Below are positions 7,828 to 32,701 of a DNA stretch of 64,000 nt, one piece after another. Every line of letters begins with the position of its first letter. Positions within the stretch are counted from its first letter, which is position 1. The position numbers and the translations under genes are program-made. The notes under the pieces were generated by a model. The model searched no databases. It worked only from the letters and a program-made list of their open reading frames with translations, and was not told the origin of the DNA. Source of the DNA: Macrostomum hystrix (lineage: Eukaryota; Animalia; Platyhelminthes); NCBI GenBank assembly GCA_950097015.1, contig CATNEN010000001.1, positions 16,864,001 through 16,928,000 on the forward strand, written 5' to 3'.

Positions 7828-8097
7828 CTACTTGCCGGGGCGCAGGGAGCGGTAGATCCTGTACATCCTGCTAGCGATGCGGTACACGCGCCTCCACCTG
7901 ATGCGGATGCGGCGCAGACGCAGCCACTTCTTCTCCAGCTCCATGGCCTTCTCCTCCGTCATGTTGGGCTCGTCCAAGTCGGCCAGAGCCTCCAGAGCCT
8001 GCAGCGACTCCGCGTCCTCTTCCGACATCTCCTGGCTGGGTCTGGCGGCTGCGAGAGCTGCGCAGAGCAGAAGACCGAGAGCGAACTGCCACCTCAT
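7828..8097 (-). CDS. Secreted cationic prepropeptide copy 1 (89 aa; mature WLRLRRIRIRWRRVYRIASRMYRIYRSLRP-GK), putative antimicrobial peptide
   Basis: ATG at 8097 in ACAATCATG context, hydrophobic signal peptide, acidic propiece, KK site, Arg-rich C-terminus, GK-stop. Confidence 0.85.
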   Translation of the reverse strand: MRWQFALGLLLCAALAAARPSQEMSEEDAESLQALEALADLDEPNMTEEKAMELEKKWLRLRRIRIRWRRVYRIASRMYRIYRSLRPGK

Positions 8098-9862
8098 GAT
8101 TGTGATGCTGCTGCTGTAGCTTGATGAAGCTGGTAGAGAAGCTGAGATCGAGTGTTTGGCTTGGAGAGGTCTCTCAGCGTCCAGCGGTGTTGCTTTTATG
8201 CACTCGAAATCGGCACGTTTTTCCGGTAGTTTCAATGCGTGGATGTGGGTCGTGTTTTTTCCTCGAATATTTTTTTCTTGGTACTTCAATGCAGTGTTGC
8301 TTATAGAAGCTGGATAGAAGCCGTCTCATTGTCTGCTATTGACGGTCAAGACCAAGCAGTATGAGCTTCGTCTCTATTGTGCCCGCGGTGAAGACTTTTT
8401 GTTATTTATTTTTTTGCCACCGAGTTCTTATTTTTAGCTCGGTTGAATGGCCCCCTTATTGCCATTGGCATTGTGCCTTTCAGTCATGAGTCGGTCTGTC
8501 TGAGTTTTACGTCTGCTCTGATAGCGAGAGCAATGATATATTTCAGGGGAAGGCGATTGTCTTAAAGTATCTCAAGATATTAAAAAAAGATGGAAACCAA
8601 AATGCAGAGAGTCTCATCTGGTTATGTCAAGCTAATCCGAGAGGCAAAAACGGATGTAACTCGTAAATAGAATCTTGCATGGCCAAATAATGAAATGACC
8701 TGTCTGTCAGTTGTTAGCAGTAGAAAAATCATGCTTTCCCCCAGGGGAGAGACCACGGGGCATTTCAAATACCCAGCGCCTACTTCACAAATTGCTCCTC
8801 AACCAAATGACGGATTTTGTGAAAGTCCACCATCTGAATCAACAGTTGCCGCCTTTTACGCTGAACTAACTGTCGATGCCGTACGTATCATTGAGATATT
8901 AGAGATTGTTGTCGAAGACCCTGGTGACAAGAACAAAGACCACATTGCTCTGAATTAGCCTCTATGGCGAATTGATTTCGGTTTAAAAGTTTATAAATTA
9001 ACAATATGATCAATACGATATATTTAACAATGATACTTGACTTGATAAAATTGTGTAAACAGAAAATATTTGCATATTTTGCGGAAATTTTCACTGACAT
9101 CTCGACGAGAATCGGTGAATATCTCGACGTTGTCGATGTTTTGTGATTCGGGAAGTTGTTTCATCGGATAGAGCAGAAAAATGTAGCCTGTTTTGGATTT
9201 TCATGGCGATCGGTTGAATAATTTAGGAGACACAGAAAAGATAAATATTAAGTGTATTTGAATTACCCTTATGGTATTTCTGGTGTCAAGCTCGAAAAAG
9301 AAGCTGAGATCGAGCTTGATTTTCAACTTATTGTTCAGAACGATAATAAGCTTATCCTCTTCCTTATCATGATCTCAGAGGCCGTACCAGACGCTAGCAT
9401 GCGATGTGTCGGCATTCTCAACACCCTCGTGTTGAGATAGATAACATTCTATGTCAACATTCATTCTACAGCACTACACCAACGTTTTCTTCTTGTCAAG
9501 TGGACTGACGTTAATACTGTTATTTCGACAAAGATACTCTGAGCAGACTTTTTCTAAATCGAGTCAGTTAACTTGCCGAAGGCTTGAGCAATCGCAGCTA
9601 AAAGAGAAAATGGCTGCGAACCCGAAAGAAGTTCAATGTTAATTAGTCTCAATATCTTGACCATGAAAAACAAGTTTCATTAAAAAAAGTTTCGCAGACA
9701 ACTATGCCATTGTCTCTAAGAAGAAGTGTCTAAGCAGTGACTTGTTTACTACGAAGAGCACAATACCACTGGGCATTGTGGCTTCAATTTATTACTTTGC
9801 CGCCCTTTAGAATGGCAGCTAAAAATAAGGAGGCCACAAGGCAACGCGGAAAACAATATCAG

Positions 9863-9900
9863 TGGAAAAACGTGCCGATTTCGAGTGCATAAAAGCGACA
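9863..9900 (+). promoter_or_regulatory. Putative core promoter of the peptide genes (GGAAAAACGTGCCGATTTCGAGTGCATAAAAGC, TATA-like CATAAAA)
   Basis: Conserved about 100 bp upstream of the ATG in all six intact copies; homology among different flank types starts at this block. Confidence 0.5.
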
Positions 9901-9990
9901 CCGCTGGACGCTGAGAGACCTCTCCAAGCCAAAAACTCGATCTCAGCTTCTCTACCAGCTTCATCAAGCTACAGCAGCAGCAACACAATC

Positions 9991-10263
9991 ATGAGGTGGC
10001 AGTTCGCTCTCGGTCTTCTGCTCTGCGCAGCTCTGGCAGCCGCCAGACCCAGCCAGGAGATGTCGGAAGAGGACGCAGAGTCGCTGCAGGCTCTGGAGGC
10101 TCTGGCCGACTTGGACGAGCCCAACATGACGGAGGAGAAGGCCATGGAGCTGGAGAAGAAGTGGCTGCGTCTGCGCCGCATCCGCATCAGGTGGAGGCGC
10201 GTGTACCGCATCGCTACTAGGGTGTACAGGATCTACCGCTCCCTGCCGTTCCCCGGCAAGTAG
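9991..10263 (+). CDS. Secreted cationic prepropeptide copy 2 (90 aa; mature WLRLRRIRIRWRRVYRIATRVYRIYRSLPFP-GK)
   Basis: Same architecture as copy 1; divergently oriented from it. Confidence 0.85.
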   Translation: MRWQFALGLLLCAALAAARPSQEMSEEDAESLQALEALADLDEPNMTEEKAMELEKKWLRLRRIRIRWRRVYRIATRVYRIYRSLPFPGK

Positions 10264-11659
10264 AGCCGCTGCGGGTCTCGCCTCTGACACCTGGTTACTG
10301 ACCGGACTGCGCCCTCGACTCGCTCGCTCAATGAACTCTATTGTACATCGCTCAAATTTATTAATTTATTGAATTTAGAAGTTACTGATCGGTACAGTAT
10401 GGGTTCCTTTCAAAAGTGCACTTTCGTTAAGAGAAAATTTTTAATAAACAATTTGCAGTAACATGACGGAACTTACAAGTCAAGTATACATTTTTTCTAA
10501 AGGTACTTCACCGCATTTTTATTCTATTTACTATTTCCATTGGCTTTTGTTGCGCCTGACGGAATGGCCGGGAGTTCGAAGCTAAAGCCCAGTGAAATGC
10601 GCAGAGTTAGTTCCCCGTAGCAAGACACAAAACTGCATGTGAAGCTTTGCTAATCTGTCACTAGCACATGGTGACGGGTATGTCTCTGTACTTTAAATCA
10701 AGCTGAAGTTTTTAGAAGTTTAGAGGCTTTTTAGTATTAGTGTTGCCACGACTTTTAACTTTCAAGATAATCATTTTTAACTTCTACACTTGACAAGTGT
10801 TCAATGTTAAAGAGAGAAATTAACGAAGGAAGAATATTATTAAGACAAAAATGTATGTAACGCGATGAAACAAGCGGGACATTTCCAGATTTTTTAGGGC
10901 AATTAGCGTTTGTTTTTTGGCTCGAGGCCTTAACGTAGATGTGTCCTTGTCATCTTAAGCCATTCAGTCGTTTAGATTTTTCATGGCAGTCCTTTGATTT
11001 TGCAGTTGATTTTGAAAAGTGAAGTGTTTCTTTGCTACGAGTAACATTTATTTATTGAAACGGTGTTGCAATATCCATTCCAACCACGCTTAAATGAGAA
11101 GTAGACCCCGATTTGGCTACACCACAGCTGTTTCTCGAGCCTCTGTCATCTGTGCAATGTAATTTGCCAGTAACTCTTTCGATTCTCAGTCTTTTTGAAC
11201 CATGCAGCGAGTGCCTGTCGATACTCTGTAGCGATACCCTGACTGAGATGACTGAGAAAAGTTCATTCTGCTAGTTTGAGAAGAAGGCGAGCAAAATTCA
11301 ATATTTCAGTGTGCGATAATTAATAGCGAGATATTATATAGCGATCAGGGGAGAGTGGTGGAAGGTGACACACAGGTAGACAAAGAGTATTAGAGAAAAT
11401 GAGTATGTACTTGCAGTGGAATAAAATAAGTGAGAACAAAAATATGGTAAACAAATTCTGATGCAAAATAAGTCTGACAACTCAAATTCACTTAAGTTCA
11501 TCGAGTCACTTAGATGAGCTACAGCAAAACGCCGCCTCACACCCCATGCTTCGGATGCGTATAACAAAATGCTGTCAATCGTGGCTGTGAATTAGGAAGA
11601 CAACTACTGTTACATGGTATTCAAAAAAGAAATATAAAACTTGCTAACATATTAACCTC

Positions 11660-11840
11660 AGAGATGAGACACAGGAGAGATGAGACACAGGAGAGATGAG
11701 ACACAGGAGAGATGAGACACAGGAGGAATGAGACACGGGAGAGATGAGACACAAGAGACACGCGACACGGGAGAAATGAGACACAAGACACGGGAGAGAT
11801 GAGACAAAGGAGGGATGAGACACAGGACAGATGAGACAGC
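11660..11840. repeat. About 16-bp minisatellite (gagatgagacacagga)
   Basis: Imperfect tandem units; reverse complement of the core of the 43.2 kb repeat. Confidence 0.8.
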
Positions 11841-12224
11841 GGGCTAGAGAGAGAACCTAAAAGACGATAGCGGGCCGCATTGACTTTAGAAATGTGAAAT
11901 AGGGGAAAGATGAGACAGGATCCTTTAGGTGTCGGAAGGGGCAACGGGCCGGGTTCGGGTGCTTCGAGGGTCGCATCTGGCCGACCCCTGCCTTAGAGCA
12001 ACAACGCCACTGACTTCAGGCCATCGTCTAATTTTATTATATTTGGAATCATCCATTTCTCATTAACGTTGGAGTCCTCGTTGCTCTACGGAACTCACGT
12101 TCCCTATAGCAATGCTTCACAAGCGAAGTTATGGCTTCCTAGTCTAACGAGGATAGAGTACGTCTCAACTCTAGGTTGCAGATTTCTTGCAAACGCGAGT
12201 GTCTTTAGGATAAATAGTAGACGT

Positions 12225-12361
12225 TGGCTCTCAAGGACGTAAATGGCACAACAAGCCTTCTCTCCAAGGCGGCGCCCAATTAAATGTAGTCTTAACGGGA
12301 AATCGAGCTCAGGAACATTAGCCAGAGAGGCAAACGTGTTAACCGCTCTGCCACTGACCCT
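12225..12361 (-). mobile_element. Degenerate tRNA-derived SINE (family 2) head
   Basis: Reverse complement resembles the 5' part of the SINE at 28944 (gggtcagtggcagagcggttaacacgtttgcctctc...ctcgatt). Confidence 0.6.
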
Positions 12362-12803
12362 CTAGTCCTTAGAATACTAAGACATTAGATTTGTAGCGAT
12401 TATTTCTATCCCAGCTGATGCTGAAGCAATGCAGTTTTGTGTCTTGCTACGGGGAACTAACTCTGCGCATTTCACTGGGCTTTAGTTTCGAACTCCCGGC
12501 CATTCCGTCAGGCGCAACAAAAGCCAACGGAAATAGTAAATAGAATCAAAATGCTGTGAAGTACCTTTAGAAAACATGTATACTTGACTTGTAAGTTCCG
12601 TCATGTTACTGCAAATTGTTTATTAAAAATGTTCTCTTAACGAAAGTGCACTTTTGAAAGGAACCCATACTGTACCGATCAGTAACTTCTAAATTCAATA
12701 AATTAATAAATTTGAGCGATGTACAATAGAGTTCATTGAGCGAGCGAGTCGAGGGCGCAGTCCGGTCAGTAACCAGGTGTCAGAGGCGAGACCCGCAGCG
12801 GCT

Positions 12804-13076
12804 CTACTTGCCGGGGAACGGCAGGGAGCGGTAGATCCTGTACACCCTAGTAGCGATGCGGTACACGCGCCTCCACCTGATGCGGATGCGGCGCAGACGC
12901 AGCCACTTCTTCTCCAGCTCCATGGCCTTCTCCTCCGTCATGTTGGGCTCGTCCAAGTCGGCCAGAGCCTCCAGAGCCTGCAGCGACTCCGCGTCCTCTT
13001 CCGACATCTCCTGGCTGGGTCTGGCGGCTGCCAGAGCTGCGCAGAGCAGAAGACCGAGAGCGAACTGCCACCTCAT
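12804..13076 (-). CDS. Secreted cationic prepropeptide copy 3 (90 aa, PFP-GK type)
   Basis: Protein identical to copy 2; its mirror partner in the palindrome. Confidence 0.85.
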   Translation of the reverse strand: MRWQFALGLLLCAALAAARPSQEMSEEDAESLQALEALADLDEPNMTEEKAMELEKKWLRLRRIRIRWRRVYRIATRVYRIYRSLPFPGK

Positions 13077-14979
13077 GATTGTGTTGCTGCTGCTGTAGCT
13101 TGATGAAGCTAGTAGAGAAGCTGAGATCGAGTTTTTGGCTTGGAGAGGTCTCTCAGCGTCCAGCGGTGTTGCTTTTATGCACTCGAAATCGGCACGTTTT
13201 TCCACTGACTTTGTTTTCCGCGTTGCCTTGTGGCCTCCTTATTTTTAGCTGCCATTCTAAAGGGCGGCAAAGTAATAAATTGAAGCCACAATGCCCAGTG
13301 GTATTGTGTTCTTCGTAGTAAACAAGTCACTGCTTAGACACTTCTTCTTCTTAGAGACAATGGCATACTCGTAGTTGTCTGCGAAACTTTTATTTAATGA
13401 AACTTGTTTTTCATGTTCAAGATATTGAGACTAATTAACATTGAACTTCTTTCGGGTTCGCAGCCATTTTCTCTTTTAGCTGCGATTGCTCAAGCCTTCG
13501 GCAAGTTAACTGACTCGATTTAGAAAAAGTCTGCTCAGAGTATCTTTGTCGAAATAACAGTATTAACGTCAGTCCACTTGACAAGAAGAAAACGTTGGTG
13601 TAGTGCTGTAGAATGAATGTTGACATAGAATGTTATCTATCTCAACACGAGGGTGTTGAGAATGCCGACACATCGCATGCTCGCGTCTGGTACGGCCTCT
13701 GAGATCATGATAAGGAAGAGGATAAGCTTGTTATCGTTCTGAACAATAAGTTGAAAATCAAGCTCGATCTCAGCTTCTTTTTCGAGCTTGACACCAGAAA
13801 TACCATAAGGGTAATTCAAATACACTTAATATTTATCTTTTCTGTGTCTCCTAAATTATTCAACCGATCGCCATGAAAATCCAAAACAGGCTACATTTTT
13901 CTGCTCTATCCGATGAAACAACTTCCCGAATCACAAAACATCGACAACGTCGAGATATTCACCGATTCTCGTCGAGATGTCAATGAAAATTTCCGCAAAA
14001 TATGCAAACATTTTCTGTTTACACAATTTTATCAAGTCAAGTATCATTGTTAAATATATCGTATTGATCATATTGTTAATTTATAAACTTTTAAACCGAA
14101 ATCAATTCGCCATAGAGGCTAATTCAGAGCAATGTGGTCTTTGTTCTTGTCACCAGGGTCTTCGACAACAATCTCTAATATCTCAATGATACGTACGGCA
14201 TCGACAGTTAGTTCAGCGTAAAAGGCGGCAACTGTTGATTCAGATGGTGGACTTTCACAAAATCCGTCATTTGGTTGAGGAGCAATTTGTGAAGTAGGCG
14301 CTGGGTATTTGAAATGCCCCGTGGTCTCTCCCCTGGGGGAAAGCATGCTTTTTCTACTGCTAACAACTGACAGACAGGTCATTTCATTATTTGGCCATGC
14401 AAGATTCTATTTACGAGTTACATCCGTTTTTGCCTCTCGGATTAGCTTGCCATAACCAGATGAGACTCTCTGCATTTTGGTTTCCATCTTTTTTAATATC
14501 TTGAGATACTTTAAAACAATCGCCTTCCCCTGAAATATATCATTGCTCTCGCTATCAGAGCAGACGTAAAACTCAGACAGACCGACTCATGACTGAAAGG
14601 CACAATGCCAATGGCAATAAGGGGGCCATACAACCGAGCTAAAAATAAGAACTCGGTGGCAAAAAAAATAAATAACAAAAAGTCTTCACCGCGGGCACAA
14701 TAGAGACGAAGCTCATACTGCTTGGTCTTGACCGTCAATAGCAGACAATGAGACGGTTTCTATCCAGCTTCTATAAGCAACACTGCATTGAAGTACCAAG
14801 AAAAAAATATTCGAGGAAAAAACACGACCCACATCCACGCATTGAAACTACCGGAAAAACGTGCCGATTTCGAGTGCATAAAAGCGACACCGCTGGACGC
14901 TGAGAGACCTCTCCAAGCCAAAAACTCGATCTCAGCTTCTCTACCAGCTTCATCAAGCTACAGCAGCAGCAACACAATC

Positions 14980-15249
14980 ATGAGGTGGCAGTTCGCTCTC
15001 GGTCTTCTGCTCTGCGCAGCTCTGGCAGCCGCCAGACCCAGCCAGGAGATGTCGGAAGAGGACGCGGAGTCGCTGCAGGCGCTGGAGGCTCTGGCCGACT
15101 TGGACGAGCCCAACATGACGGAGGAGAAGGCCATGGAGCTGGAGAAGAAGTGGCTGCGTCTGCGCCGCATCCGCATCAGGTGGAGGCGCGTGTACCGCAT
15201 CGCTAGCAGGATGTACAGGATCTACCGCTCCCTGCGCCCCGGCAAGTAG
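14980..15249 (+). CDS. Secreted cationic prepropeptide copy 4 (89 aa, LRP-GK type)
   Basis: Protein identical to copy 1; its mirror partner in the palindrome. Confidence 0.85.
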   Translation: MRWQFALGLLLCAALAAARPSQEMSEEDAESLQALEALADLDEPNMTEEKAMELEKKWLRLRRIRIRWRRVYRIASRMYRIYRSLRPGK

Positions 15250-15704
15250 AGCCGCTGCGAGTCTCGTTTCTGACACCTGGTTACTGACCGGACTGCGCCC
15301 TCGACTCGCTCGCTCAATGAACTCTATTGTACACTTCTAGCATAGTTATCGTGTAAATTAGTTTATTATCAGATAATAACTTAAGTGCACTGGTGCTAAC
15401 TCTTCTGGTACTGAATTCCTTAATACAAATTCATAAGATATGAAACAACACTTTTAATTAAATAAATGTTTCTTACGACCAAAATTAAGCTTTTGTACGG
15501 TTTTTTCTGGTCATATTTGTACTTTAACTTCTGTGTGATGGGCTAAAATAGTTGCATCGGGCACTAAATCTATCATGGGTATCAAAGTTCTGAAGACTTT
15601 CAGAGGCCGGACGTGTTTCTTATACGGAAAAAGATGTATGACTGCTATCACAAAAGAAGAGGCTAAATTATGGTATTCGACTAGGAGAAGAAAAAATTGC
15701 AAGT

Positions 15705-15885
15705 CAAGCCAAACACTCGATCTCAGCTTCTCTACCAGCTTCATCAAGCTACAGCAGCAGCATCACAATCATGAGGTGGCAGTTCGCTCTCGGTCTTCTG
15801 CTCTGTTCAGCTCTGGCAGACGCCAGACCCAGCCAGGAGATGTCGGAAGAGGACGCGGAGTCGCTGGAGGCTCTGGCCGACTTGG
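15705..15885 (+). pseudogene. Truncated prepropeptide copy 5 (5' UTR, signal and part of the propiece only)
   Basis: ATG at 15771, MRWQFALGLLLCSALADARPSQEMSEEDAESLEALADL, then unrelated sequence. Lacks the promoter block, has a 9-bp deletion and an A>D change near the signal cleavage site. Confidence 0.8.
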
Positions 15886-18350
15886 TCAACGGTTATTCAA
15901 CCGAGATATTCAACGGTTATGGCCAAAGGTCAAATTTTTCAAAAAATGTAATTTCATACCCCCCTCTACACGCCTCAGAGCGGCCTTGTCAGGGCTTGAA
16001 ACTTAATCAGCACGTCACCCGATGCGCCTGCATCATCTTCGACTTCGATGGTCACTGACCTTCATCTAGACTTTCAGCTACCCGAAAAAGATTTACTATA
16101 GCGAATCAACAGTCAGCGTAACGGGGGGTCCCAGGGTGTGCCCTGGAAGGGGTAAGGGCCAACAGAACAGGCCTATCTCTCTACAAGCTGCCAAGGCGGC
16201 CCTCAGACGAGCAAGAGCCGCCCGTGACCTTAAGGTGCTGGCGACCAACGCCCCGACACCTCAGCCGGGCCGAGACGGTTGCAGCCAAAAAGCTAAGGGC
16301 GGCGTGCTCGATGCTGGCAAACTCCACCAGGCACCGCCTCGGCCTCACTGCGACCCGCTCTGCCGCTCTTCGACGGGGGTCCCGGAGGATTTCCGCCGGT
16401 TTGGGGTCTGGGACAGTCACTACACGATAGGCCCCGAAACAACATCAGGAAATTCGTTGCAAGACAGTCGGAGGTTTTCTATTTTGTTAGTCGTTGTTCA
16501 TTCGTTCATCCCACATACGATGACTAAAGTATTTAGTTACTATTACTTTAGTAGGCGATGTTTGGAAGGTTTCGAAGCGTGGACTGCTAAAGAGCATTGG
16601 GCGACTCAGTTTTCTCCAGTATTTTATTTTTAGATCTCAATTTCGCCGAATTAAGTACCATGGTTCTTTGTTCCCATGGCTTTCATTTGACCGCAACTAG
16701 CACGTCATAGATTCTGTATTCTGTAAAAACAACGCATTTCGAAGTTGCCACAGCTTTTATCTTGGAAATTACGAAACTAAAAAAGCTTTTTGGTGAACAA
16801 TTTTCTCAGAGCAGAAATATTATCGAGACTTGGTTTCTTCATGGTTTATTGTTTTTCCGTTTCTTCTGCAATTGAATCGTTAGCTTGTACTGTCAATTCA
16901 AGTTAGCCGTTTTTATCTTATAATACTTCCCTTAAGCTCGAGTGCCTGCTAGGCGAAATACGCAGAGTGAAGAGTGCCCTTTCTGCCCCTCCATGGTAGA
17001 GAATTCAAAGCATCTCGTTTGCGACTGTTCCGCCTTTATTTAAGACGGGCTCACCTACCTCGGCCCAAACCCGGACTCTTCACTATGTTTTCAGGCATGA
17101 GAATATCTGCCAGCTCGATGGATACCTAAGAGCTAAAGGACGAGCAACTCTCCACTAGCTGGGCTTTGATTGAAATTAAGCCAGCGCCGTGGACACTTTC
17201 ATCACCAAATCCCCCTGAGCGACACCGCAGCTCTAGTTGCCCGTGGTCGCTAGGGGCTAGCGAAATGGGCGACGACGCCTCCCCGCTGATTTCGGGTGAT
17301 GCAACCGCAGCTAGCCATGACAATGCTAGCCTTGGAGATTTTAAACCCAATGCAATGATTTACAAAAATTTGCTTAACTGTTAAACGATTTTAAACTGAT
17401 TTTAAACTGAACTGAATCTGTTAATAGCAGCCAGAGCCGTGTTAAAAAGACTCAACAAAAATAGACAGACTCGGAGAACATTTACCACGCGTTTGATCCC
17501 TTTAACAGTAGAACTACCAAGGGGGGGTAGAACTTCCCCCTTACCATTTTTGCTACACCCGAACAGAACAATCCATGCACACGAAACTCAAGAACACGGG
17601 CAAACAATGCCACAGGCCACAATGGACACCCTGAAGCGAATTTCTCCAATTATCGCTTATCGAGCCTAAAAATTAGGCGCAGCTCAACCACAGGGCACCC
17701 TCGCCTAGTCAGTCACCACCCAAAGCTGTTAGCATTCAGGCGCTGCTAAATACATTTTCAGGGGGGGACATTCCCCCTCGGAATAAAAACGGGTGGCAAA
17801 ATGGCTTGTTGTCCTACTGTCAACCGCGACTAACTTAACTTTAAACAACGCGACGACTTGCAATTTTTCTATTTCTTTAAATCGATCTCAGAAAACCCAT
17901 ATGTGATTAGCTCAGAGTATCGACGCGACGAAAATCCGCTGTAGGGCATTCACAAAAATAACTTTAAAAAGCAACGCGCATCACCCTAGAAAATGTAAGC
18001 ACAATTTGCCTGAGACTCATTGTTAGTGCTTTCGCACCCTCGTGTTGACACAATGACAAGCAATAGCAAGCTACAGTTTAGCATATAAGGTAAAAAAGGG
18101 ACTTGTTTTCGTGCTATTGTTGCGATGAAAATTTATTCGTCTACTAAGTGGTTTCGAAAGTTCTTGAACTTGAGAAAAAAAAATTGGACAATGATGTTTG
18201 TGAAAAAGCAAAACAAATTAGCGGAAAAAACGTGCCGATTTCGACTGCATAAAAGCGACACCGCTGGACGCTGAGAGACCTCTCCAAGCCAAACACTCGA
18301 TCTCAGCTTCTCTACCAGCTTCATCAAGCTACAGCAGCAGCAACACAATC

Positions 18351-18599
18351 ATGAGGTGGCAGTTCGCTCTCGGTCTTCTGCTCTGCGCAGCTCTGGCAGC
18401 CGCCAGACCCAGCCAGGAGATGTCGGACGAGGACGCGGAGTCGCTGCAGGCGCTGGAAGCTCTGGCCGACTTGGACGAGCCTGAAATGGCTGAGAAGGCC
18501 ACGGAGCTGCAGAAGAAGTTATATTCGGGCTTCCGTTTGAGGCGTGTGTTACGCATGGCTCTCAGGGTCTACAGGATGTACGGGATCCCCGGCAAGTAG
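18351..18599 (+). CDS. Secreted cationic prepropeptide copy 6, divergent paralogue (82 aa; mature LYSGFRLRRVLRMALRVYRMYGIP-GK)
   Basis: Identical signal peptide, near-identical start of propiece, KK site and PGK-stop, but a different mature peptide. Confidence 0.85.
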   Translation: MRWQFALGLLLCAALAAARPSQEMSDEDAESLQALEALADLDEPEMAEKATELQKKLYSGFRLRRVLRMALRVYRMYGIPGK

Positions 18600-21420: not shown

Positions 21421-22123
21421 CTCGTTTCAACACAACTCAATATACCAATTTACCAATAGCACAGTGGGCTGCAGAGGGCTGAAACGAGCTAAAACGTTGA
21501 GGCACGTAGCGCCGAGGCATTTCACCTCGTTTCAGCCCGAGCAGCCTATCCATATTAGTGTTGTAATGGGTGTCCCAAAAAGGGTAGCACTGTGCGCTCA
21601 CTGTGAGTGAGCAGTTAGGCCTATAGCCTAGTAATTTAACAGGTCTACAGTAAACATTTATAAGTTTTTCCCACAAAAATTTGGTTACGAAAAATTGCTC
21701 TAGAGGCGAGTTACTGAGCAGAGAAGTGTACGCCAAAGATTATAAATACCCGTATTTATAATCTTTGCTCGCGATTTAAACAAACAACCCTAAAAGCCAT
21801 GCTTTATCTTCTCCTTAAACACTGCTTATTATATTTATAAACTTCCTCGTCTTGTGGTTTCTGTCTATGGTAAAATCTCCAGTTTTGACGCAAAAAAGAC
21901 AGCCACCATTCATTTTAGACTAGCTTTAACATTAAAACTCTGTGTTTATATGTAGCAAGGACTTCTATATAATAGCATCTAGGATGCTATAATAGGATGC
22001 TATTAGGGAGTCTTGACTTACTTGACTTAGCTGCAGGGTGGTCCATGGACGCAGCGGGGAGGCGAGGGTCGCCCATACCGCTAACCCCTGTAGGCCCGCA
22101 GACAGGCAAGGGCGCGGGGCCGG

Positions 22124-25100
22124 TCAGGGTGGTCCGCCGGTCCGTCCTGCAGCGTTGTCTTCCGTGGGGAAGAAAGTGGCTCGTCTTGTTGCACGAAGGA
22201 ACTGGACGAGCCGTGGAATGCTGTCGGGCTGGCAGATCTCGTCCATGGACGGGTTGGGCCCGAGGTAGCGAAGCCGGTCTCTGTTAAAGAAAGGGCAGTG
22301 ACACACAAAGTGCTCAGCATCTTCGGTGTCATACTCACAGAATGGGCAGAGTTCACTCTCAAGGTCACCCCGGAGGAAACAGTGCCTAGCGAGGTAGCCG
22401 TGGCCCGTGAGGGTCATGGCGAGGGCGCGGATATCCTTCCGGTTTTGGTTCAAAAGGATGCTCCTGAGCCTGCGAGACGGGCGCGGAACTGCGGCACGGG
22501 ATTGCCGACAGTTCTGGGTGCCCGCCCATCTGTCCCTGTGCAGGGATTCAGCCCAGTCATCAATAAGGCGATTGATGACCGTGATGGGGATCGGGACCAG
22601 GGGAGCAGGTCCCAGGAGAGAGCCTGAGCCACCTTGCTTGGCAAGGGTATCCGCAAGCTCGTTCCCTGGGAAGCCCGCATGCCCTGGGATCCAGCTCAGC
22701 TTGACCGTGTTGTTACTGGCCAGGAGGTTGAGTTGCCGGGCACAGTCAGCGACTGTCCGGGAGCACGTGGTGGTGCGGCAAAGGGCTTGTAAGGCCGCTT
22801 GGCTGTCAGAGTGGATGATGATGGTCTCTCCTCTCGTATTCCTGGCATTCAGCTCTGCGGCACAAGAGCTGATGGCAAGGATCTCATTCTGGAAGACCGT
22901 GGAGAGTCTCCCAGTATGTTGGGCATGCGTGGCGACGACGCGGCCGTTGATCAGGATGCAGACCCCAAAGCCGGCAAGGCCGTCTTTTAGGGATCCGTCC
23001 GTGTAGCAGTGGACCTCCTGGTGGTTCCAGTGGTCGTTAGCGTCATCCCTCGAGGGAATGATGATTTTGTAGCGCTGGGTGAGATTGAGAGTGCGTGGTT
23101 CGCCGTCAGATAAGACGTGGAGTCCGCCGCCATCTTTCAAGTCACGAAGGCACAGATCGGTGTGAGGCAGAAGTTTGCGTTTTGCCATTGCTCTTTGCGG
23201 CGTGAAGCGGACGCCGGCGTCAATGAGCCGACGCGCTGTTTTGGCGGCTTCCCTGCGGACAAAAATGTCCAGCGGGGTAGCGTCGAGGAAGGCATTGAGG
23301 CCGTCGTAAGGAGCAGACGGTGGGGCACTCATGGTCATGCGACAAGCGCGCCCTTGCGTTTTCCTAAGTGCCTCCAGGCAGGTCTTCATCTGCAGGGCAC
23401 TGGCCCAGATCAAGCTGCCGTACGAGACAGCTGGCCTGACCATTGCAGTATAGATCCACCAGAGGCGCTTGGGGGTGAGCCCCCAGGTGGTGCCAACGGC
23501 CCTCCGCAGCTGCGCGAGGATCGCGAGGGCCCTCTTGGTTTTGGTTTGAACATGGGGAGACCAGTTCAGCCTATGGTCCAAGGTGATCCCTACGCATTTG
23601 GTTTGCTTACAGAAGGAAATTTCCTTACCGTAAAGCCTAAGCGGCTGTATCTGCCACTTGTTTCTGCTGGTGAACATGATCACTGCAGTCTTGGTCTCGG
23701 AGAGCTTCAGACCACAGCGACCCGCCCATTGTTCAGCAGAGTGGATGAAATTCTGAAGGAGGTCCCTGAGAGTGTCAGGGGATGGGCCAGACGCCACAGC
23801 AGTGACATCGTCCGCATACCCCACCTTCAGGATTGGGTCAGGACGGTCGTCACGGAGGAGCTCGTCAATGACCATGTTCCAGAGAATAGGAGAGAGGACC
23901 CCTCCCTGCGCGCTCCCTTTGCGGACGGGGACCGTCCGTTGGTGGCCCAGCAGGTTGGCAGTGACCGTGCGATGACTGATCATATACATGATCCATCTGG
24001 TGAGGGACGAGTGAGTGTGCCTCTCGTAAAGGGCTTTGCGGAACGCTTCGAAGAGGACGTTGTCAAAGGCACCGTCAATGTCTAGGAAGACGCTTAAGGC
24101 GAAGCCGGTGCCAAGCACAGCTTTCTCCAATTTGTCGACCAGAACGTGCAGCGCGCTTTCGGTGGAGCGACCCGCCCGAAAAGCATGCTGGTTGTCGCTG
24201 AGCGGCGCGTTCTTCAGTTCCACTGAGAGAAGGCGCCACAGCACTAGTCTCTCCATCAGCTTGACCAGGAAGGTGGTTAGGCTGATTGGTCTGAAGGATT
24301 TTATAGACTGGTAGTCCGGGCGGCCTGGCTTCGGGATAAAAATCACCTTCGCCTCGGTCCATGCCTGCGGGACGTACCCGAGCGTGATGCAGGCTCGATA
24401 GAGGTTGCAAAGAGAGCGCAGGAAACCTGGGCATTTAACCGCCTCTCTAAGAAAGGCAGGTACGATGCCATCAGGCCCTGGAGCCTTGAAAGGCTTGAAG
24501 GAGGTGGCCGCTTTAACGATGCGGTCCTCCGTGATGATAGAGGCAGCCAGCATCTGGCCTCCCTCAGTGTGGTCTGAGGTGGTCAGGTTGGTTGGTTCGT
24601 TGGGGAAGAAGGCAGAGAGCATGACCTCAAGCGTTTCTCCTGGGTTGTCAGTTGACGTGCCGTCGGTTCGCTTAACCGAGGAGAGCTTGGACATTTTGTC
24701 TAGCGTAAGTGCTTTGACAATTCTGGAGGTGGGGCGTGAGCCCTCTAGCTCCTCGCAGTATTGGCGCCACTTCTGGGCCTTGGCAGTCCTGATCTCCCTC
24801 TTGAACTCATGGATGGCTTCAAGGTAGGCGGTCTGGTCTGCAGGGCTCCTGGTTTTGTTCGCTCTGCGGTGTAATCTCTTCGCTCTGCGACGGAGGTCGC
24901 CGAGCTGAGGATTCCACCACGGCGCAGATGTCTTCCCTTTGTAGGCTTTTAGGGGACAGGCAGCCTCGAAGGCGGCGGTTAGCGTTTCTGTTAAAACAGT
25001 CGCGCACTCGTCCGCCTCTCGGCACGTCGAAATAGTGGGTGGTTGGCCCGAAGACCGATGGGTCGTCTCCAAGGCATGCCTGAAGGCTTCCCAATCAGTA

Positions 25101-25829
25101 TTTCTGGCGTTCCGTCTCCACGTGATGTGGTTTAGGCTGCGAGCGCTCGCCACACGAAAGTGAATGAACTTATGGTCAGAGAGGGACGGCACCGGGAGCA
25201 CGCGCCACACCCCAATACTCTGAAAGAGCTTGGGTGAAGCGAGCGTGGCGTCAATCACCTCTGACCAGCGTCCATTGTCGAAAGTAGGCGTAGACCCAGA
25301 GTTACAGAACTCCAGGGTCGTAGAGGTAACATAGGACAGGAGGTCTTCGCCTCTCTGGTTTATCCCTGTGCTGCCCCAGTGGGTATGGTGGGCGTTGATG
25401 TCGCCGGCGACCATCAGCTCATAATTCCTGGCAGAGCAGAGTTCGACCAGGGTGGTGAGCGTCCGGGGGGACGACCGCTACGTCACCTGGTAGGTAAACC
25501 GAGGCAACGAGGGTGGTTCTCCCAGGCAGCAGATCCTCAGATTGAATGACGCAGATATCCCCGTTAGACAGGTCGGGTCTGAGCCAAGCACCGAGGGTTT
25601 TGGCCCCGAAGATACAGGCTCTAGGTGGCCGGTTCGCCTCGCGGGGGCTAACGCAGAAGCAGTTGTACCCAGAAGGCACGTTTTGGGGCTTACCTTTGGA
25701 GGTCCACGGCTCCTGGACTAGGATGAGACCCGGCTTGTCGAGCTCGGCTTGACGCATCAGGTTAGCCGAAGCTGCGACGCTGTGTTGCAGATTAATCTGC
25801 AGGCAGCTAATTCCTGGACTGCTGATCAT
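22124..25829 (-). CDS. Retrotransposon ORF2: AP endonuclease - reverse transcriptase - RNase H - CCHC finger (one frameshift near 25465)
   Basis: LQINLQH, LVQEPW, GDINAHH, SDH; KAPGPDG, FRPISL, QGGVLSP, YADD; YTDGS, HSDSQAAL, WIPGH, GNELAD; CPFC...HFVCHC. Confidence 0.92.
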
Positions 25830-27386
25830 GGCCGCGCAGTCGGGAGTCGCGTAGCAATTCCTCCTCTTCCTTTTCGGAGATGGAAGGCTCGCAAAGCTCC
25901 ATGGGAATCTCGGCGTCCCCGGCAGTCAGGGTGGCTGAGGAGCCCTCAGCGGGCATTTGCCCAGCAAGAGTGTCTCCCTCGCCGTCCCTTTGCGTCGTGA
26001 CGCCGATACTGCCCAGGCTCGCCTCGTCGGTCAGGTCAACGTGGATGGCGCGATCCGCCTGGTGAGTGCTAGCCTCAAACCAGTCAGTCGGCGCCTCTCC
26101 TCGTCGCTCCTGCCCCACTGGCTGCTTCGGTGGAGCGTTCGATGTGTGGGCCCGCTCAAGGTGCGCCCTGAGAGTCCTGGCTTGTTCCAGCGCACGCTGG
26201 ACCAGCCCAGATCTCCGGGTGGACCTGGCAGGCCTGCGGTCGCGAGGTCCGGATTCGGCAGCGCGGGCTGCTTTACCGGGGTGGGGATCCACCGTTTGCC
26301 TCTGCTTCTTCGCCGGAGGAGCTTGCGCCCCGGATCCGGACTCAGGAGCTTTGGCTTTTTTGGCTTCGCCAGCTTTCCTCTCCTCGCAGCGGAGGATGGT
26401 CAGCTGAGTTAGACCAAGGTGAATGATGGACTTTGGCGGCAAGCGCTTCGTCCACGCATCCGAGAGCCCCAGGATCACCGTGAACCCGTCTCCTTGCGGG
26501 AGGAGGCATGGTGGAGGAGCCCGTTGGCCTCAAGGTCGGGGTGCAGCTTCAGCAGAATCTGCCTAAGCTGATCCCCAGATTTGATGGCACTGCCATTCGG
26601 AATCCAAACGCGGAAGCGTTCGGTTTTAATGCGTTGGCCTTCGCTGGCGAAGGTGAGTTTGCCGAGCTTCTTGGGCCATTTTAGCTGTGGCAGAAGCTCG
26701 CGTAGAGCTCGGCTGCTTTCCTCGGAGTTGCACCAGATGAAGATGCAGCCGTCCGTTTTGGCCGATTTGACCACGCTCACCGGGCGGCCTGCCAGGAGCT
26801 GGTCAATGAGCGCAGCGTCGATGATGCGCCATACACTGTCGAGCTGCTCGGCCGTGAGGTCTTGCTCTTCCCCAAAAACGATGACCGCGGGTTGGAGCAT
26901 GGCACTGGCCTTGGAGGCGTAGGACTCCTTGGCCTTGGTAGATGGTTGGCTGGCCGGGGCCTCGCTCGCCATCGTTGCATGTGTGGCGGCTCCAGATGGC
27001 CCAGCCACGTTGCCGGTGTTTGAGTTGCTGGTGGGCTCAGCGGGTGGTGACCCCGCGGAGGCGGTTTCCCGAGGGGCTGAGGTGGCGGTGGCTCCTTTCG
27101 GCCCAACCGCTCCTACGCCCACTTGAGGCACCACCTCCGCGGATTGCCGAACCGCGGCCTCCCTCTCTCGCTGTCGCCGACGCCGTTCGTTGCGGCGTTG
27201 GTTGCGGCCTTGACGGGCTTCCTTGGACCGGATGCCTGGGGGTCCGGGGACAGGTCCACCGTCAGGCAGGGCGGAAGCGGGTCCGGTAGCCTCCGGTGGG
27301 GCGACGTTGGCGCTGTTGGAAGCGGCCGGAGCAACTGGGGGGTTTCCAGTTTCACTATCTTTAAAAGATTGAGCAGAAGAAGCCAT
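25807..27386 (-). CDS. Retrotransposon ORF1 (gag-like), apparently split by a frameshift near 26480
   Basis: Abutting ORFs 26475-27491 and 25807-26478 lie upstream of and overlap ORF2; low-complexity basic N-terminus. Confidence 0.7.
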
Positions 27387-27554
27387 TGCTGAAAGCGGGA
27401 GGAGGGTGAGAGGTGACTCACAAGAAAAGAGAGAGAATAAAAAGAAACCGCTAAAGACCGGACTACTCCCCGGCCAAGCGCCCTTCGGCACGGCGAGACC
27501 TTGGGCCTTAGAGGGCGGCAGAAAGCAGCGCCAGACCCGCAGTTAACCTGCGTA

Positions 27555-28385
27555 CCCTGTTAAGGTCGAAGGGTGACACCTTTCCCTCAGAGCCGTAGCC
27601 AGAGGTACCTGATCACACACAGGTGCACGAACGCTGCGGACTGGCCGCATACCCTGTTAAGGTCGAAGGGTGACACCTTTCCCTCAGAGCCGTAGCCAGA
27701 GGTACCTGATCACGCACAGGTGCACGAACGCTGCGGACTGGCCGCATACCCTGTTAAGGTCGAAGGGTGACACCTTTCCCTCAGAGCCGTAGCCAGAGGT
27801 ACCTGATCACGCACAGGTGCACGAACGCTGCGGACTGGCCGCATACCCTGTTAAGGTCGAAGGGTGACACCTTTCCCTCAGAGCCGTAGCCAGAGGTACC
27901 TGATCACGCACAGGTGCACGAACGCTGCGGACTGGCCGCATACCCTGTTAAGGTCGAAGGGTGACACCTTTCCCTCAGAGCCGTAGCCAGAGGTACCTGA
28001 TCACGCACAGGTGCACGAACGCTGCGGACTGGCCGCATACCCTGTTAAGGTCAAAGGGTGACACCTTTCCCTCAGAGCCGTAGCCAGAGGTACCTGATCA
28101 CGCACAGGTGCACGAACGCTGCGGACTGGCCGCATACCCTGTTAAGGTCGAGGGGTGACACCTTTCCCTCAGAGCCGTAGCCAGAGGTACCTGATCACGC
28201 ACAGGTGCACGAACGCTGCGGACTGGCCGCATACCCTGTTAAGGTCGAGGGGTGACACCTTTCCCTCAGAGCCGTAGCCAGAGGTACCTGATCACGCACA
28301 GGTGCACGAACGCTGCGGACTGGCCGCATACCCTGTTAAGGTCGAAGGGTGACACCTTTCCCTCCAGCCGGGGCTAGAGGTACCC
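27555..28385. repeat. 97-bp tandem array (8 full units plus a partial unit) in the retrotransposon 5' UTR
   Basis: Units start at 27555, 27652, 27749, 27846, 27943, 28040, 28137, 28234 and 28331 and are nearly identical. Confidence 0.95.
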
Positions 28386-28943
28386 AGTTTGGCCAGAGGC
28401 CCTGGATGGGTCATCCAGCGCTGTTGCCCATTCTGTCCGGCAGCCCTAGGGTCAGCCTTGAACACTCGCGGGACGTGTACCCATGGGTCAGCTGACGGGA
28501 CAGCGTGGAGGGATTCCTGCACCCGAAGGCACAGGGCTCCCTCCTGCCAGGCCTGCTCAAAAAGCGACTGCAGGTGTGAGGCATCGCAGACCTTAGCCCG
28601 TGGGCCTGGTCTGACTCATACCTCACAGGCGCTGTGTCCCGCCGGTGCGAGCGCTATTAGGGAGACTCGGTCAGGGAGATTTGGAGTTGGAGTGAAAATG
28701 TGCATTCTGTTTGGCGGGTGGGCCTCACGCCATTTAGTCTATGGGGGAACTTAATGACTTTGCAGACTGTATGAAAAGCGTTTTGGTTTTCAAATAGAGT
28801 TAGTTGTACGAAAATATCTTCCCGAATATGTTCGGTGCTTTAGCGTTTTCATGCGTTTTCATAGCGAAATCTTTGATCTAAAAAAAGAAGGCGCCGCAGT
28901 ATGGTATCGCCAAGCGACCGGCACCAGTGGATACGGGCATCCA

Positions 28944-29320
28944 TGGGGGTCGGTGGCAGAGCGGTTACCGCGCTTGCCTCTCGCACCACGGTCCCTAAGT
29001 TCGATTCCACGGCGAGGCCACATTTCGTATTTGGGGCGCAGCCGCGGAGAGAAGGCTTGGGGGCTTGTCGTGCAATTTACGCCCTTAAGGGCCAACCTCC
29101 TAGGCACAGTGAAAGTGTGCACTGCCTGACGATGAGAAAGTCAGGGCAGATGTACACACCTGTGTGAGCGTATGCCTGGGTACAGTATCTGTGTGCGTGT
29201 GTGCTCAGGAGTCAGCGAAATGGGCAGAATTGCCTTCTCGCTGGCTGAGGATCTAGTGTCATCAAAATGATGTGCCATTGCCCGCAGCCCTCCTGCAATT
29301 ATTGTTATTATTATTCTTCT
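28944..29320 (+). mobile_element. Full-length tRNA-derived SINE (family 2) with 44-bp flanking direct repeat
   Basis: A-box ggtggcagagcgg, B-box agttcgattcc, (TTA)n tail; duplication at 28900-28943 and 29321-29364. Related copies at 12225, 47400, 51754 and 59366. Confidence 0.85.
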
Positions 29321-31294
29321 TATGGTATCGACAAGCGACCGGCACCAGTGGATACGGGCATCCAAGGCCTACAATACTTGGAGTACATGTTTTTAATTGT
29401 CCCTAATCTTCTGTGTCATTTTCGCAAAAGAACTGGTTTTCAAAACCCGAAAAATCAGATTTTTCCTTAATTTGAAATTAAGATGAGCAGCTCTGAGCAG
29501 CTCGATTGACAATGGGACACCTGGGGTTAACATTTTAGCGGACTTTAATTTCCTATCGTCGACTTTTACTGTAAAATTACACCTATACTTTACCGGTACA
29601 TGATTAATGATATGCTATTCGAAATCATTTTTTAGGTATAAAAGTACGTTTTTTGGCCGATTCGACGTGTCAACACGTCCAACTGGGTTTCTAGATAAAT
29701 TTTGACATGGAAAGTTAAGCTCGACACAGCTTTGTTTTAGCGCAGTAGGCGCCTAAACCCGGAAAACGTGATTTTGGCCATTTTCGCTCATTTTCACCGT
29801 ACATAGGTCCAAAAATTTACGAGTTTTGATTTTCTCGCAGATTGGCGAGCACGATCATGGCAGCGGAGTGTACTCCTTGCTCGTGAAAATGGAGAATGAG
29901 GAGCCGTCTAAAACGGAAGAAGAAGAGGATACAGAGCGGCATGGTTCATAGCAGCAATGGCCATGCGTGATCCTAGGCGACTGACGCCGTCCTTATCGAG
30001 GTACAGGGCAAGCTGCGGGACGACCTGACAGTTTTCTGGCTTGCGTGAAGAAAGAGCTGCAATCGTGTCCGTGTGTTGTCGCGGTTGGGTATGTTTGACT
30101 CATAACAGGAGGGCTTTGTCCCGTTCATTAGCATCAGGAGTGCTGGTGGCCTTGACGCGTGTGGCAAATCGAATTACATAAGTCATGAAACCAAAAAATT
30201 TGCTAAGGTGGCTAAATCGTTGGATGTCGATGTCGCCGGGCGCTGATGCCGTTTCTCGTGCGGAGACGACAAGAGAGGTGACTTCAGAACTCTTCAGAGG
30301 AGCAGTGTCTTTAACGGCGCTATAGCTATAGTTGGCGGCTTCCAGTGGAACGGCTGACGCAGGAACTTAGGACCAGTATATGAAGTTAAGTAACTGGAAC
30401 ATTCGCACAGGCTTCGTGCAGTGATCGGCCGGATTTTCTGAACGTACGGAACATATTTTCCGCAACATACCGGTGGTCCTCGGTAAATGGAGAATCTATA
30501 ATTTCTTGGATGCGATATTTCGTGTATTGGTAGATGTATATGGCGGCCCGCTAAGCTTTAGAAGAGCCATCACTGAACACAACAAGGCGACAGGGTTCAA
30601 GCCGGTCCGTAATGCATCTTCGGTGCATGACGCTCTGTTCAATATTCTCAAAGTCCTCTCGAAGATCATTCCATTCGTCTATGGTAGTTTTATCTGCCGG
30701 TTTGTCCTACTTATCTCCTGCGGTGAACGACTTGTTATAGAGAAGGCGGCCAGCTAGTAGGATCGGTGCTGCGTATACGAATGGGTGGTAGGGCTTTGCA
30801 ATGTTGCTAAGGAGGCTCGCCCGTGTGTCAGAACGTGACTTATCATGTAACACGGCTTTGCGAGTCTGACAGTGTCTTGACCTGTGTCGCAAACGATACC
30901 GAGGTTTTTTTACAACTGCGTCGGCGATTCCACCGCATGTGGCAGATCTTAGAGGGTCCTCAAGTCGTTGGAGGCAAATTCTCGCAGGTGAGAGCATGCC
31001 GATTTGAAGAGATTGCGAAGACCAGCGATGATACGAGGGCCATCACTTGCTTGGCCGTAGCCTTGAACCAGATTGTCCATGTTCAGACCAACAAATCGAT
31101 GCATCGAAAGGAATGCATGAATGAAAGTTTAAGTGAATTTCTGGCTCAATCTTAACGATAGAGAAAACATTGAGGGGCATGTGTCTGCCATCCGATGTGG
31201 CTAGCTCAAGTTAAACTAACTCGGCACTGATAACACGACGAGCTGTGGCTTGGCTCTTGTAAGGCGCCAGTTTGACAGGCGTCCAGTCCGGCGA

Positions 31295-31460
31295 GCCTCC
31301 TGAGAGCAAACCACGCAGAGCTTCAAATTTGTCGACCTCCGAGTAGCCGACTTGGTTGATTCTGTGGTTGAACGAGTTCCAGAAAGCACGGGAGCTCGCG
31401 ATATCCTCTCCATCAAACGACTGCAGATGCACCTTTTTAAGCACAGTGTCGGGTAGGTTG
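31295..31460 (-). mobile_element. BEL/Pao LTR-retrotransposon gag (DUF1759-like) fragment
   Basis: LQSFDGED...FWNSFNHRI...SEVDKFEALRGLLSG matches the pattern of Pao gag. Confidence 0.6.
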
Positions 31461-31683
31461 ATGACAGACAATGCGGTGGTTGATGACAGTAAAAGCGGTT
31501 GTTGATGACAGTAAAAGCGGTGGTTGATGACAGTAAAAGCGGTTGTTGATGACAGTAAAAGCGGTGGTTGATGACAGTAAAAGCGGTGGTTGATGACAGT
31601 AAAATCGGTGGTTGATGACAGTAAAAGCGGTTGTTGATGACAGTAAAAGAGGTGGTTGATGACAGTAAAAGCGGTGGTTGATG
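31456..31683. repeat. 22-bp tandem repeat (gttgatgacagtaaaagcggtg)
   Basis: About 10 tandem units. Confidence 0.9.
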
Positions 31684-32431
31684 AAGGTAGATCAGTGGAT
31701 GATGATGATAGTGAAAGCTCGCTAAGAGCATTCGTTGAACATTTTGCACGACTCTGCCCTCTATAGTCGATTGCGCAATGAGCTAGCTTGTATACTGCTC
31801 AAACTTATAAGGTCAAGCCCGTTATTCTGAAGACTTTAATAGAGTACAATCATCGACTGTCAAATCAATGCAAAACACAAACACGTCCGAAGTATCATGT
31901 CTGAACTCAGCGTTGACCATAAGATCCAATACTTAGTTATTTGGACAAACGATATTCTGAGCAGAATTTTTCTTAATCGAGTCAGTGAACCTGGCGAAGG
32001 CTTGAATAATCGCAGCTAAAAGAGAAAATTAAAAAATTCATCTAAAAATGGCTGCGAACCCGAAAGAAGTTCAATGTTAATTAGTCTCAACATCTTGACC
32101 ATGAAAAACAAGTTTCATTAAAAAAAGTTTCGCAGACAACTTTGCCATTGTGTCTAAGAAGAAGAAGTGTCTAAGCAGTGACTTGTTTACTACGAAGAAC
32201 ACAATACCACTGGGCATTGTGGCTTCAATTTATTACTTTGCCGCCCTTTAGAATGGCAGCTAAAAATAAGGAGGCCACAAGGCAACGCGGAAAACAAAGT
32301 CAGTGGAAAAACGTGCCGATTTCGAGTGCATAAAAGCGACACCGCTGGACGCTGAGAGACCTCTCCAAGCCAAAAACTCGATCTCAGCTTCTCTACCAGC
32401 TTCATCAAGCTACAGCAGCAGCAACACAATC

Positions 32432-32701
32432 ATGAGTTGGCAGTTCGCTCTCGGTCTTCTGCTCTGCGCAGCTCTGGCAGCCGCCAGACCCAGCCAGGAG
32501 ATGTCGGAAGAGGACGCGGAGTCGCTGCAGGCTCTGGAGGCTCTGGCCGACTTGGACGAGCCCAACATGACGGAGGAGAAGGCCATGGAGCTGGAGAAGA
32601 AGTGGCTGCGTCTGCGCCGCATCCGCATCAGGTGGAGGCGCGTGTACCGCATCGCTAGCAGGATGTACAGGATCTACCGCTCCCTGCGCCCCGGCAAGTA
32701 G
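32432..32701 (+). CDS. Secreted cationic prepropeptide copy 7 (89 aa, LRP-GK type, R2S)
   Basis: Intact ORF MSWQFALG...SLRPGK with the promoter block and conserved 3' UTR. Confidence 0.85.
   Translation: MSWQFALGLLLCAALAAARPSQEMSEEDAESLQALEALADLDEPNMTEEKAMELEKKWLRLRRIRIRWRRVYRIASRMYRIYRSLRPGK

Follow-up and report, generated by a model that had tools for sequence, protein, structure and literature searches.

An apparently unnamed superfamily of Macrostomum prepropeptides with predicted amidated cationic products and a candidate role in host defence

Introduction

What do six small, closely related genes clustered in the DNA of the flatworm Macrostomum hystrix encode, and do their products belong to a known peptide family? 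The genes lie in a stretch of 64,000 nt (assembly GCA_950097015.1, contig CATNEN010000001.1, positions 16,864,001 to 16,928,000), which was analysed whole and is referred to here as the window. The data presented below indicate a real, transcribed-looking and apparently unnamed Macrostomum peptide superfamily. The reading of its members as precursors, each with a predicted signal, an acidic propiece, a basic cleavage site and an amidated cationic peptide, is supported, and an antimicrobial function may be proposed from it. We consider it probable, with appreciable room for doubt, that this is a lineage-restricted host-defence superfamily, built like those of frog skin and Hydra and not homologous to them, whose peptides are predicted to disrupt membranes.

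Gene copies and precursor layout

Translation of the intervals listed in Table 1 yields six intact, single-exon open reading frames (ORFs) of 82-90 aa, designated c1 to c6 by position. Four are on the plus strand; c1 and c3 are on the minus strand, a point absent from the preliminary description of this DNA. A tblastn search over the window recovered the six intact copies and a broken copy at 15771, and no further family copies. A signal peptide is called from a hydrophobic core, whose 9-residue Kyte-Doolittle maximum is 2.77, and from A-A-A at positions 16-18; the c6 protein begins MSW rather than MRW. The propiece contains 13 acidic residues (12 in c5), has a net charge of -10 to -11 and is followed by a KK site. 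The predicted mature parts contain no Cys, Asp or Glu, carry charges of +6 to +12 and end in PGK-stop. Three mature types arise from the six ORFs: 30 residues with 12 Arg (c1, c4 and c6), 31 with 11 Arg (c2 and c3) and 24 with 6 Arg (c5). The preliminary description had proposed six intact ORFs plus a truncated copy, this same layout and these lengths and Arg counts, and on all of these it is borne out; its term 'Trp-rich' was overstated, as the long peptides have 2 Trp and the 24-mer none.

The layout was expressed as a hydrophobic N-terminus, an acidic spacer, a dibasic site, an acid-free basic tail and a Gly end. Of the 105 ORFs of 55-130 aa in the window, 6 showed it, and these are the genes described here; in 100 block-shuffled windows it was shown by 0 of 9,298 ORFs.

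A cassette of roughly 480 nt is common to the intact copies; it starts with a conserved block some 127 nt 5′ of the ATG and runs on for some 84 nt after the stop. CATAAAA, a TATA-like sequence, lies at -103 from the ATG in 6/6 intact copies, and AATGAA or AATTAA lies at +67 after the stop in 5/5 flanks checked; these would represent a TATA box and a poly(A) signal, respectively. A conserved GGAAAAACGT block marks the cassette start (9861-9871 and equivalents). In c2, c3 and c6 we take it to fit an NFAT5/TonE-like consensus, although it is short enough for this to be chance.

Four of the copies make up two divergent pairs, one in each arm of a 2.9-kb palindrome. An assembly artefact was rejected because the arms differ (27 mismatches and 12 gap letters, with a 1.8-kb spacer) and because flanks specific to c2, c4 and c6 occur in independent contigs. 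The c6 region (31928-32794) is 93% like the c2 region (9513-10357), and c6 is likely a recombinant, since an upstream region of the c2/c3 type is joined to a cargo of the c1/c4 type. The broken copy has a 9-nt deletion and contains neither TATA-like box nor mature part. It begins near the predicted transcript start, its homology ends in mid-propiece, and its frame continues through unrelated DNA to 16058.

Transcription and constraint

Part of the c2 region was found in 15 public runs from six studies. Contigs of four of these (X1, X2, X4 and X12) were aligned to c2; X2 is recorded as RNA, for X1 and X4 this is a guess, and X12 has no record. It is apparent that cover is zero 5′ of 9951 (the silent stretch for comparison being 450 nt upstream only), includes the ORF and falls steeply after about 10347, as expected of a transcript. 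Contigs with 0 differences to c2 over 10187-10312 were observed, and an X12 contig carries the c2-specific 3′ flank (10313-10700). The difference set of c4 is present in a 327-nt X2 contig spanning 9964-10293, and loose ends of X1 and X12 are the 3′ flanks of c4 and c6, respectively. Transcription is supported by RNA-like, strandless contigs that individually match c2, c4 and c6. Other loose ends and variants point to additional paralogues outside the window.

Among the contig variants, which are not mutually independent, 8/10 prepro substitutions are synonymous against an expected 22% (p=2e-4). Two synonymous codons separate the prepro regions of c2 and c4, yet their mature sequences differ. 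The prepro region is constrained and the cargo is variable. Antisense ORFs of 75-80 aa overlap each copy, and were rejected as real genes: 5/10 variants are synonymous in that frame as against 8/10 in the sense frame (the frames share third positions and the contigs are strandless), there is no signal peptide, and the TATA-like box faces the opposite direction.

Relatives and cargo diversity

A single-sequence search gave 11 matches among 26 candidates, all of them hypothetical proteins of Macrostomum lignano with 57-77% identity in local alignment. A profile search of 1.84 billion representatives gave 12 matches, 11 M. lignano proteins plus one Logan protein, and a wider profile gave 31 matches among 7,994 scored candidates (30 from M. 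lignano and the one Logan protein). With cluster members, 70 family protein records were obtained. Seven were dropped, P0003, P0019 and P0071 for want of a signal start and P0005, P0011, P0038 and P0054 as defective; addition of the three window types brought the usable set to 66, of which 62 are M. lignano records, some of these being homeologues. The closest full-length homologue is P0001 (Mlig001477.g4), 69% identical to c2. The hydrophobic signal core has values of 2.5-3.5 across 26 sequences.

When cleavage sites were placed by an analysis-specific rule, 30 distinct mature peptides were predicted behind the conserved signal and acidic propiece. The cargo follows KK or KKK in 24 of the 30 and a single Lys in the remaining 6, and 24/30 end in a Gly(+basic) amidation signal. 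Cys occurs in 1/30 and an acidic residue in 4/30. Fourteen cargoes are of 12 aa or fewer; twelve of them have 6-10 residues, of which 5-9 alternate between hydrophobic and Arg/His. The others comprise long, Arg-rich, window-like peptides, Arg/His/Tyr-rich 37-46-mers and a Pro-Arg repeat.

Orthogroup assignments (Brand et al. 2020, PMC7336406) extend the family further. OG0005584, which contains P0004, has M. hystrix and M. spirale members, OG0005357 includes all four species, M. pusillum among them, and OG0004590 includes M. hystrix. By orthogroup membership, the family reaches three Macrostomum species besides M. lignano. Clustering in M. lignano was deduced only from consecutive accession numbers on same-sized contigs.

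Some source models are irregular. Those of P0018, P0027, P0033, P0001 and P0038 start with an antisense-like prepro region or with a repeated signal or propiece, which suggests inverted or tandem copies that abut one another, or else artefacts of fold-back. The source names 'SERPIN domain' (P0005), 'Sushi domain' (P0019) and 'Neur_chan_LBD' (P0054) look like those of mis-joined or mis-named models and were discounted; P0019 had no match to the window at E≤1e-3.

Searches for named families

Pfam searches gave no meaningful family for the window genes or, at E≤0.1, for 21 members; the matches to HCMV_UL124, Lock_Gag1-like and DUF4576 were rejected as weak and compositional. A PDB search gave only 3 matches (E 0.37-3.1), none meaningful. 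These results, with the profile searches, agree with the statement in the preliminary description that no family was recognised. No Hydra arminin or periculin homology was detected, all profile matches but the one Logan protein being from M. lignano, and none to frog skin peptides, no such Pfam family being present among the 21 members and no amphibian sequence among the profile matches. For the histatin/clavanin and Bac/PR-39 families there was no positive sequence test.

No paper naming the family was found in the library searched by full text, which did not extend to subscription papers, antimicrobial peptide (AMP) databases, bioRxiv supplements, the PMC5946080 supplements or the extensive tables of differential expression in PMC7336406. 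The family is not described in the available parts of PMC12435804, PMC12732829, PMC5977470, PMC10786194, PMC11688501 and PMC10024726, and six family gene ids are absent from the supplements of PMC5730564 and PMC5816591. The PMC12896417 supplement lists the Mlig025003g1 product, with a log2 change of -0.71 between ploidy lines. No description of effector peptides of M. lignano was found in the literature searched.

Proposed mechanism and peptide structure

Prohormone convertases cut at dibasic sites, carboxypeptidase trims Lys, and PAM turns Gly into an amide. By this route the single-exon precursors would be secreted, cleaved after Lys-Lys, trimmed of Lys and amidated at the C-terminal Gly. 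The Arg-rich peptides so released would bind anionic microbial membranes electrostatically and disrupt them. The long peptides are strand-periodic in their first third (moment 1.02) and helix-periodic in the middle (1.00). In the long window peptides an N-terminal stretch of alternating Arg and hydrophobic residues may be joined to an amphipathic helix, and the short M. lignano relatives would be the alternating stretch alone.

In the frog pattern, the signal and cleavage sites are under purifying selection and the cargo diversifies (PMC3731216), Hydra AMPs form genus-restricted, clustered families of paralogues with bipartite charge (PMC10945409), and designed 8-10-mers in which cationic residues alternate with hydrophobic ones are antimicrobial and can be both active and selective (PMC8757834). 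A more elaborate version is put forward tentatively, as something short of an even chance: that one prepro cassette carries several unrelated cargo designs, including natural, gene-encoded, Cys-free amidated β-strand 8-10-mers, whose alternation of cationic and hydrophobic residues has hitherto been a feature mainly of synthetic peptides, and the long strand-plus-helix hybrids of the window, and that the family rises with crowding or mating as a prophylaxis and shapes the microbiome.

Expression and alternative functions

Expression of the M. lignano relatives was taken from supplement rows of PMC7336406, sought for 18 gene ids; 14 had rows, 21 in all, in which some g-suffixes differ from those of the protein records. 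The region class was 'Non-Specific' in 20/21 rows and 'Tail' in 1/21, and testis, ovary, neoblast or germline entries accounted for 0/21. In worms kept in octets, as compared with isolated worms, 11/21 rows were up and none down, 2 being also up versus pairs; by gene id, 8/14 were up. In the background, 5.6-6.0% of non-specific transcripts rise in either direction, and 10.5% of transcripts change in that contrast. Mlig013080.g1 and Mlig030183.g2 were up and Mlig001477.g4 and Mlig025003.g1 were not, these four being among the ids nearest the window. We count the rise in octets, and the lack of neoblast or germline entries, in favour of a defensive role.

A number of observations weigh against a defensive role. 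The octet enrichment is large (binomial p 4e-9 by rows and 4e-7 by ids), but reads are shared among paralogues and the rows therefore lack independence, and a rise in groups fits mating equally well. The 'Non-Specific' label is weak evidence, because the class covers 47,371 of 58,668 transcripts (81%). An in situ transcript, RNA815_1838.3, which maps to Mlig001477.g4, is recorded as 'gonads' in a table row of Ramm et al. (2019); the probe likely spans the coding part, since its forward primer reads as ATQLNQ, a match to P0001 immediately upstream of the second Met. Among orthogroup or family rows, Mlig001660.g2 and Mlig040010.g1 are 'Tail', and one of the 'Tail' rows is a further OG0005584 member. 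At the window itself, the contigs carry no information on strand or level, and for three of the four runs an RNA origin is only a guess or has no record.

The peptides themselves also raise difficulties. Near-neutral His-rich 6-7-mers, poor candidates for membrane killing, make up 24/66 records, and Val-containing alternating peptides are less active than others (PMC8757834). Taken singly, the c2/c4 amphipathic moments do not exceed those of shuffles (p 0.10-0.14); the joint post hoc p is 0.005-0.012, and p is 0.014 for the c5 helix. AlphaFold2, with low global confidence (pTM 0.31), models the entire mature part as helix, contrary to the strand reading. The acidic propiece would mask the cationic peptide until processing, and propiece acidity does track cargo charge (Spearman -0.88, n=30). 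This match is confounded with length and weakens with independent contrasts (r -0.23, p 0.22; with unit branches -0.44, p 0.015; contrast signs 13:6 and 11:8). Charge matching was therefore rejected as not robust after allowing for kinship, and for that reason masking is something that we only infer.

The alternative that survives best, although we regard it as unlikely, is a structural gland secretion, in which the peptides would self-assemble in mucus, rhabdites or egg cement to give fibres or gels and the acidic propiece would maintain solubility in granules. Macrostomum adhesion reportedly employs a cationic secreted protein, and contig cover in X12 is very deep, which is not a measure of level. 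Twelve of the 14 short cargoes are alternating strands of hydrophobic and basic or His residues, and strands of this kind form amyloid-like fibrils (PMC8757834). The tail is the site of the adhesive and cement glands, however, and 20/21 rows lie outside it; a single short peptide per precursor, amidation and a hypervariable cargo would better suit a bioactive effector. Literature on rhabdites and arginine gave only unrelated planarian work.

The same chemistry might instead be directed at food diatoms in the pharynx or gut, or at predators, an explanation that appears improbable to us. The layout is that of the defensive skin arsenals of frogs, which mix AMPs with anti-predator peptides (PMC3731216), and head-region glands belong to the 'Non-Specific' class. 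The tissue data give no pointer to pharyngeal glands, however, and a rise in groups would not be expected of a feeding role resembling that of an enzyme.

Equally doubtful is a reproductive secretion, whether in seminal fluid, gonad or egg provisioning, and possibly a maternal antimicrobial like Hydra periculin. It would accommodate the 'gonads' record for P0001, the rise in octets, the two 'Tail' rows and the fast evolution. Set against it are the lack of testis-region, ovary-region or germline rows and the preponderance of non-tail rows noted above. In one species, one orthogroup is 'down' in adults compared with both hatchlings and regenerants (direction taken from the column name), a pattern ill suited to an adult sex product, and the orthogroup nearest the window is marked 'mixed'. 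Expression limited to the tail and prostate, as in the Mlig-pro seminal fluid genes, was not seen, 1 of the 21 rows being 'Tail', the Mlig-pro list itself (PMC5977470 supplement) not having been searched.

Neuropeptide or hormone precursors, giving amidated ligands of receptors or peptide-gated channels, are very improbable: dibasic sites with Gly amidation are neuropeptide grammar too, two short cargoes have an RF-amide end and a DEG/ENaC-family gene is nearby, but charges reach +12, cargoes of 30-46 residues and dozens of clustered copies occur, the 30 peptides have no conserved C-terminal motif, and the 21 members have no match to neuropeptide Pfam families.

Genomic surroundings

Coordinates of the family copies and of other features in the window are collected in Table 1. 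Some DEG/ENaC-family channels are gated by amidated peptides; the adjacency of such a gene to the cluster is probably due to chance. The M28 gene we take to resemble glutaminyl cyclase, and no link to the family is claimed because the family cargoes do not start with Gln. The two ORFs at 36890-38429 are presumably Helitron-like. The sole match to the window caspase at E≤1e-30 is an M. lignano protein, 50% identical. As none of four window proteins was present in the protein collection searched either, a Macrostomum species other than M. lignano is the likely source, an unannotated M. lignano locus being the less likely one.

Table 1. Family copies and other features of the window (LTR, long terminal repeat; LINE, long interspersed nuclear element; RT, reverse transcriptase)
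Feature	Position	Strand	Description	Basis
c1	7828..8097	-	89-aa prepropeptide, predicted mature type 30 residues	translation, tblastn
c2	9991..10263	+	90-aa prepropeptide, predicted mature type 31 residues	translation
c2 signal	codons 1-18			
c2 propiece and KK	codons 19-57			
c2 mature part (predicted)	10162-10254			
c2 Gly-Lys-stop	10255-10263			
c3	12804..13076	-	protein identical to c2, 1 synonymous change	
c4	14980..15249	+	protein identical to c1	
Broken copy	15705..15885	+	5′ leader, signal, half of propiece; ATG 15771	
c5	18351..18599	+	divergent 82-aa copy, predicted 24-residue helical-type mature peptide	
c6	32432..32701	+	mature peptide of c1/c4 type behind upstream region of c2/c3 type	
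Shared cassette (example c2)	9864..10347	+	conserved upstream block, CATAAAA at 9888, leader, ORF, AATGAA/AATTAA	
Inverted duplication, left arm	7744..10638		divergent pair c1/c2; arms 98.7% identical	
Inverted duplication, right arm	12429..15333		divergent pair c3/c4	
DEG/ENaC gene pieces	236-1893	+	about 6 kb from cluster	PF00858
DDE transposase fragment	19.6-20.4 kb		between c5 and c6	
Non-LTR (LINE-type) retrotransposon	~22100-27400	-	between c5 and c6; largely intact; endonuclease, RT, RNase H, upstream ORF1-like frame	
Tandem array	27553-28384		97 bp x 8.6, after the retrotransposon	
Two ORFs	36890-38429	-	no Pfam match; plus 69-bp tandem repeat	
Minisatellite arrays	39226-41523 (26 bp), 44620-46933 (27), 47659-51085 (25), 59521-63752 (21)		produce spurious long ORFs	
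Peptidase M28 gene	41893-43123	+	signal-like start	Pfam M28
Caspase ORF	52216-53544	-	442 aa, uninterrupted; faint death-effector-domain signal	PF00656
WD40-repeat gene pieces	57813-59339	+		

Significance

The window's six genes account for a small share of a large superfamily in Macrostomum, the cargoes of which are very diverse. RNA interference (RNAi), transgenesis, a described microbiome and germ-free rearing are available for M. lignano (PMC10024726; the part available does not mention peptides or defence effectors). With dozens of genes, RNAi targets and easily synthesised products of 6-32 residues, flatworm innate defence and microbiome control become testable. Arg-rich peptides of a saline habitat are, in addition, candidate salt-tolerant leads.

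Comparison with known systems

Arminins are amidated cationic C-terminal peptides, and the dermaseptin superfamily belongs among the comparable frog skin precursors. The likeness to both that was drawn in the preliminary description holds for layout; it does not extend to homology, none being detectable. The Macrostomum genes resemble those of Hydra AMPs (arminins and periculins; PMC10945409) in having a signal peptide, bipartite negative and positive charge, and tandemly duplicated, genus-restricted paralogues. Most Hydra AMPs have a cysteine pattern, in contrast to the 29/30 Cys-free cargoes observed here.

Frog skin precursors (pipid; PMC3731216) are likewise of 60-105 aa, with a conserved signal and cleavage site, a hypervariable cargo and C-terminal amidation, and related precursors among them give structurally different peptides. 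The frog genes are multi-exon and encode mostly Lys-rich helices released at KR or RXXR sites, whereas those of the present family are single-exon and Arg-rich, with a KK site and many alternating-strand cargoes. Because the combination of a prepro region with a hypervariable cationic cargo is already a known kind, this is a new family and not a new principle. Histatin and clavanin are His-rich, and the Bac/PR-39 peptides are of the Pro-Arg type. The Arg/His/Tyr-rich cargoes of P0046 and P0069 are like the former, and the Arg-Val-Arg-Leu-Pro repeats of the Logan protein P0016 like the latter, by composition only.

The 12 predicted 6-10-residue amides of M. lignano, with their 5-9 alternating hydrophobic and Arg/His residues, are like the designed [XZ]n peptides ([IR]4, [IRIK]2 and [RW]n; PMC8757834), and the window peptides open with the same alternating stretch. 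The designed peptides are synthetic, whereas their M. lignano counterparts are gene-encoded and predicted only. Linear β-stranded AMPs are uncommon in nature, and that review, in the part available, found no study of RV peptides; RV is the commonest alternating pattern among the short cargoes here. Should the short alternating amides prove active, nature would have arrived at a design known to chemists from de novo construction.

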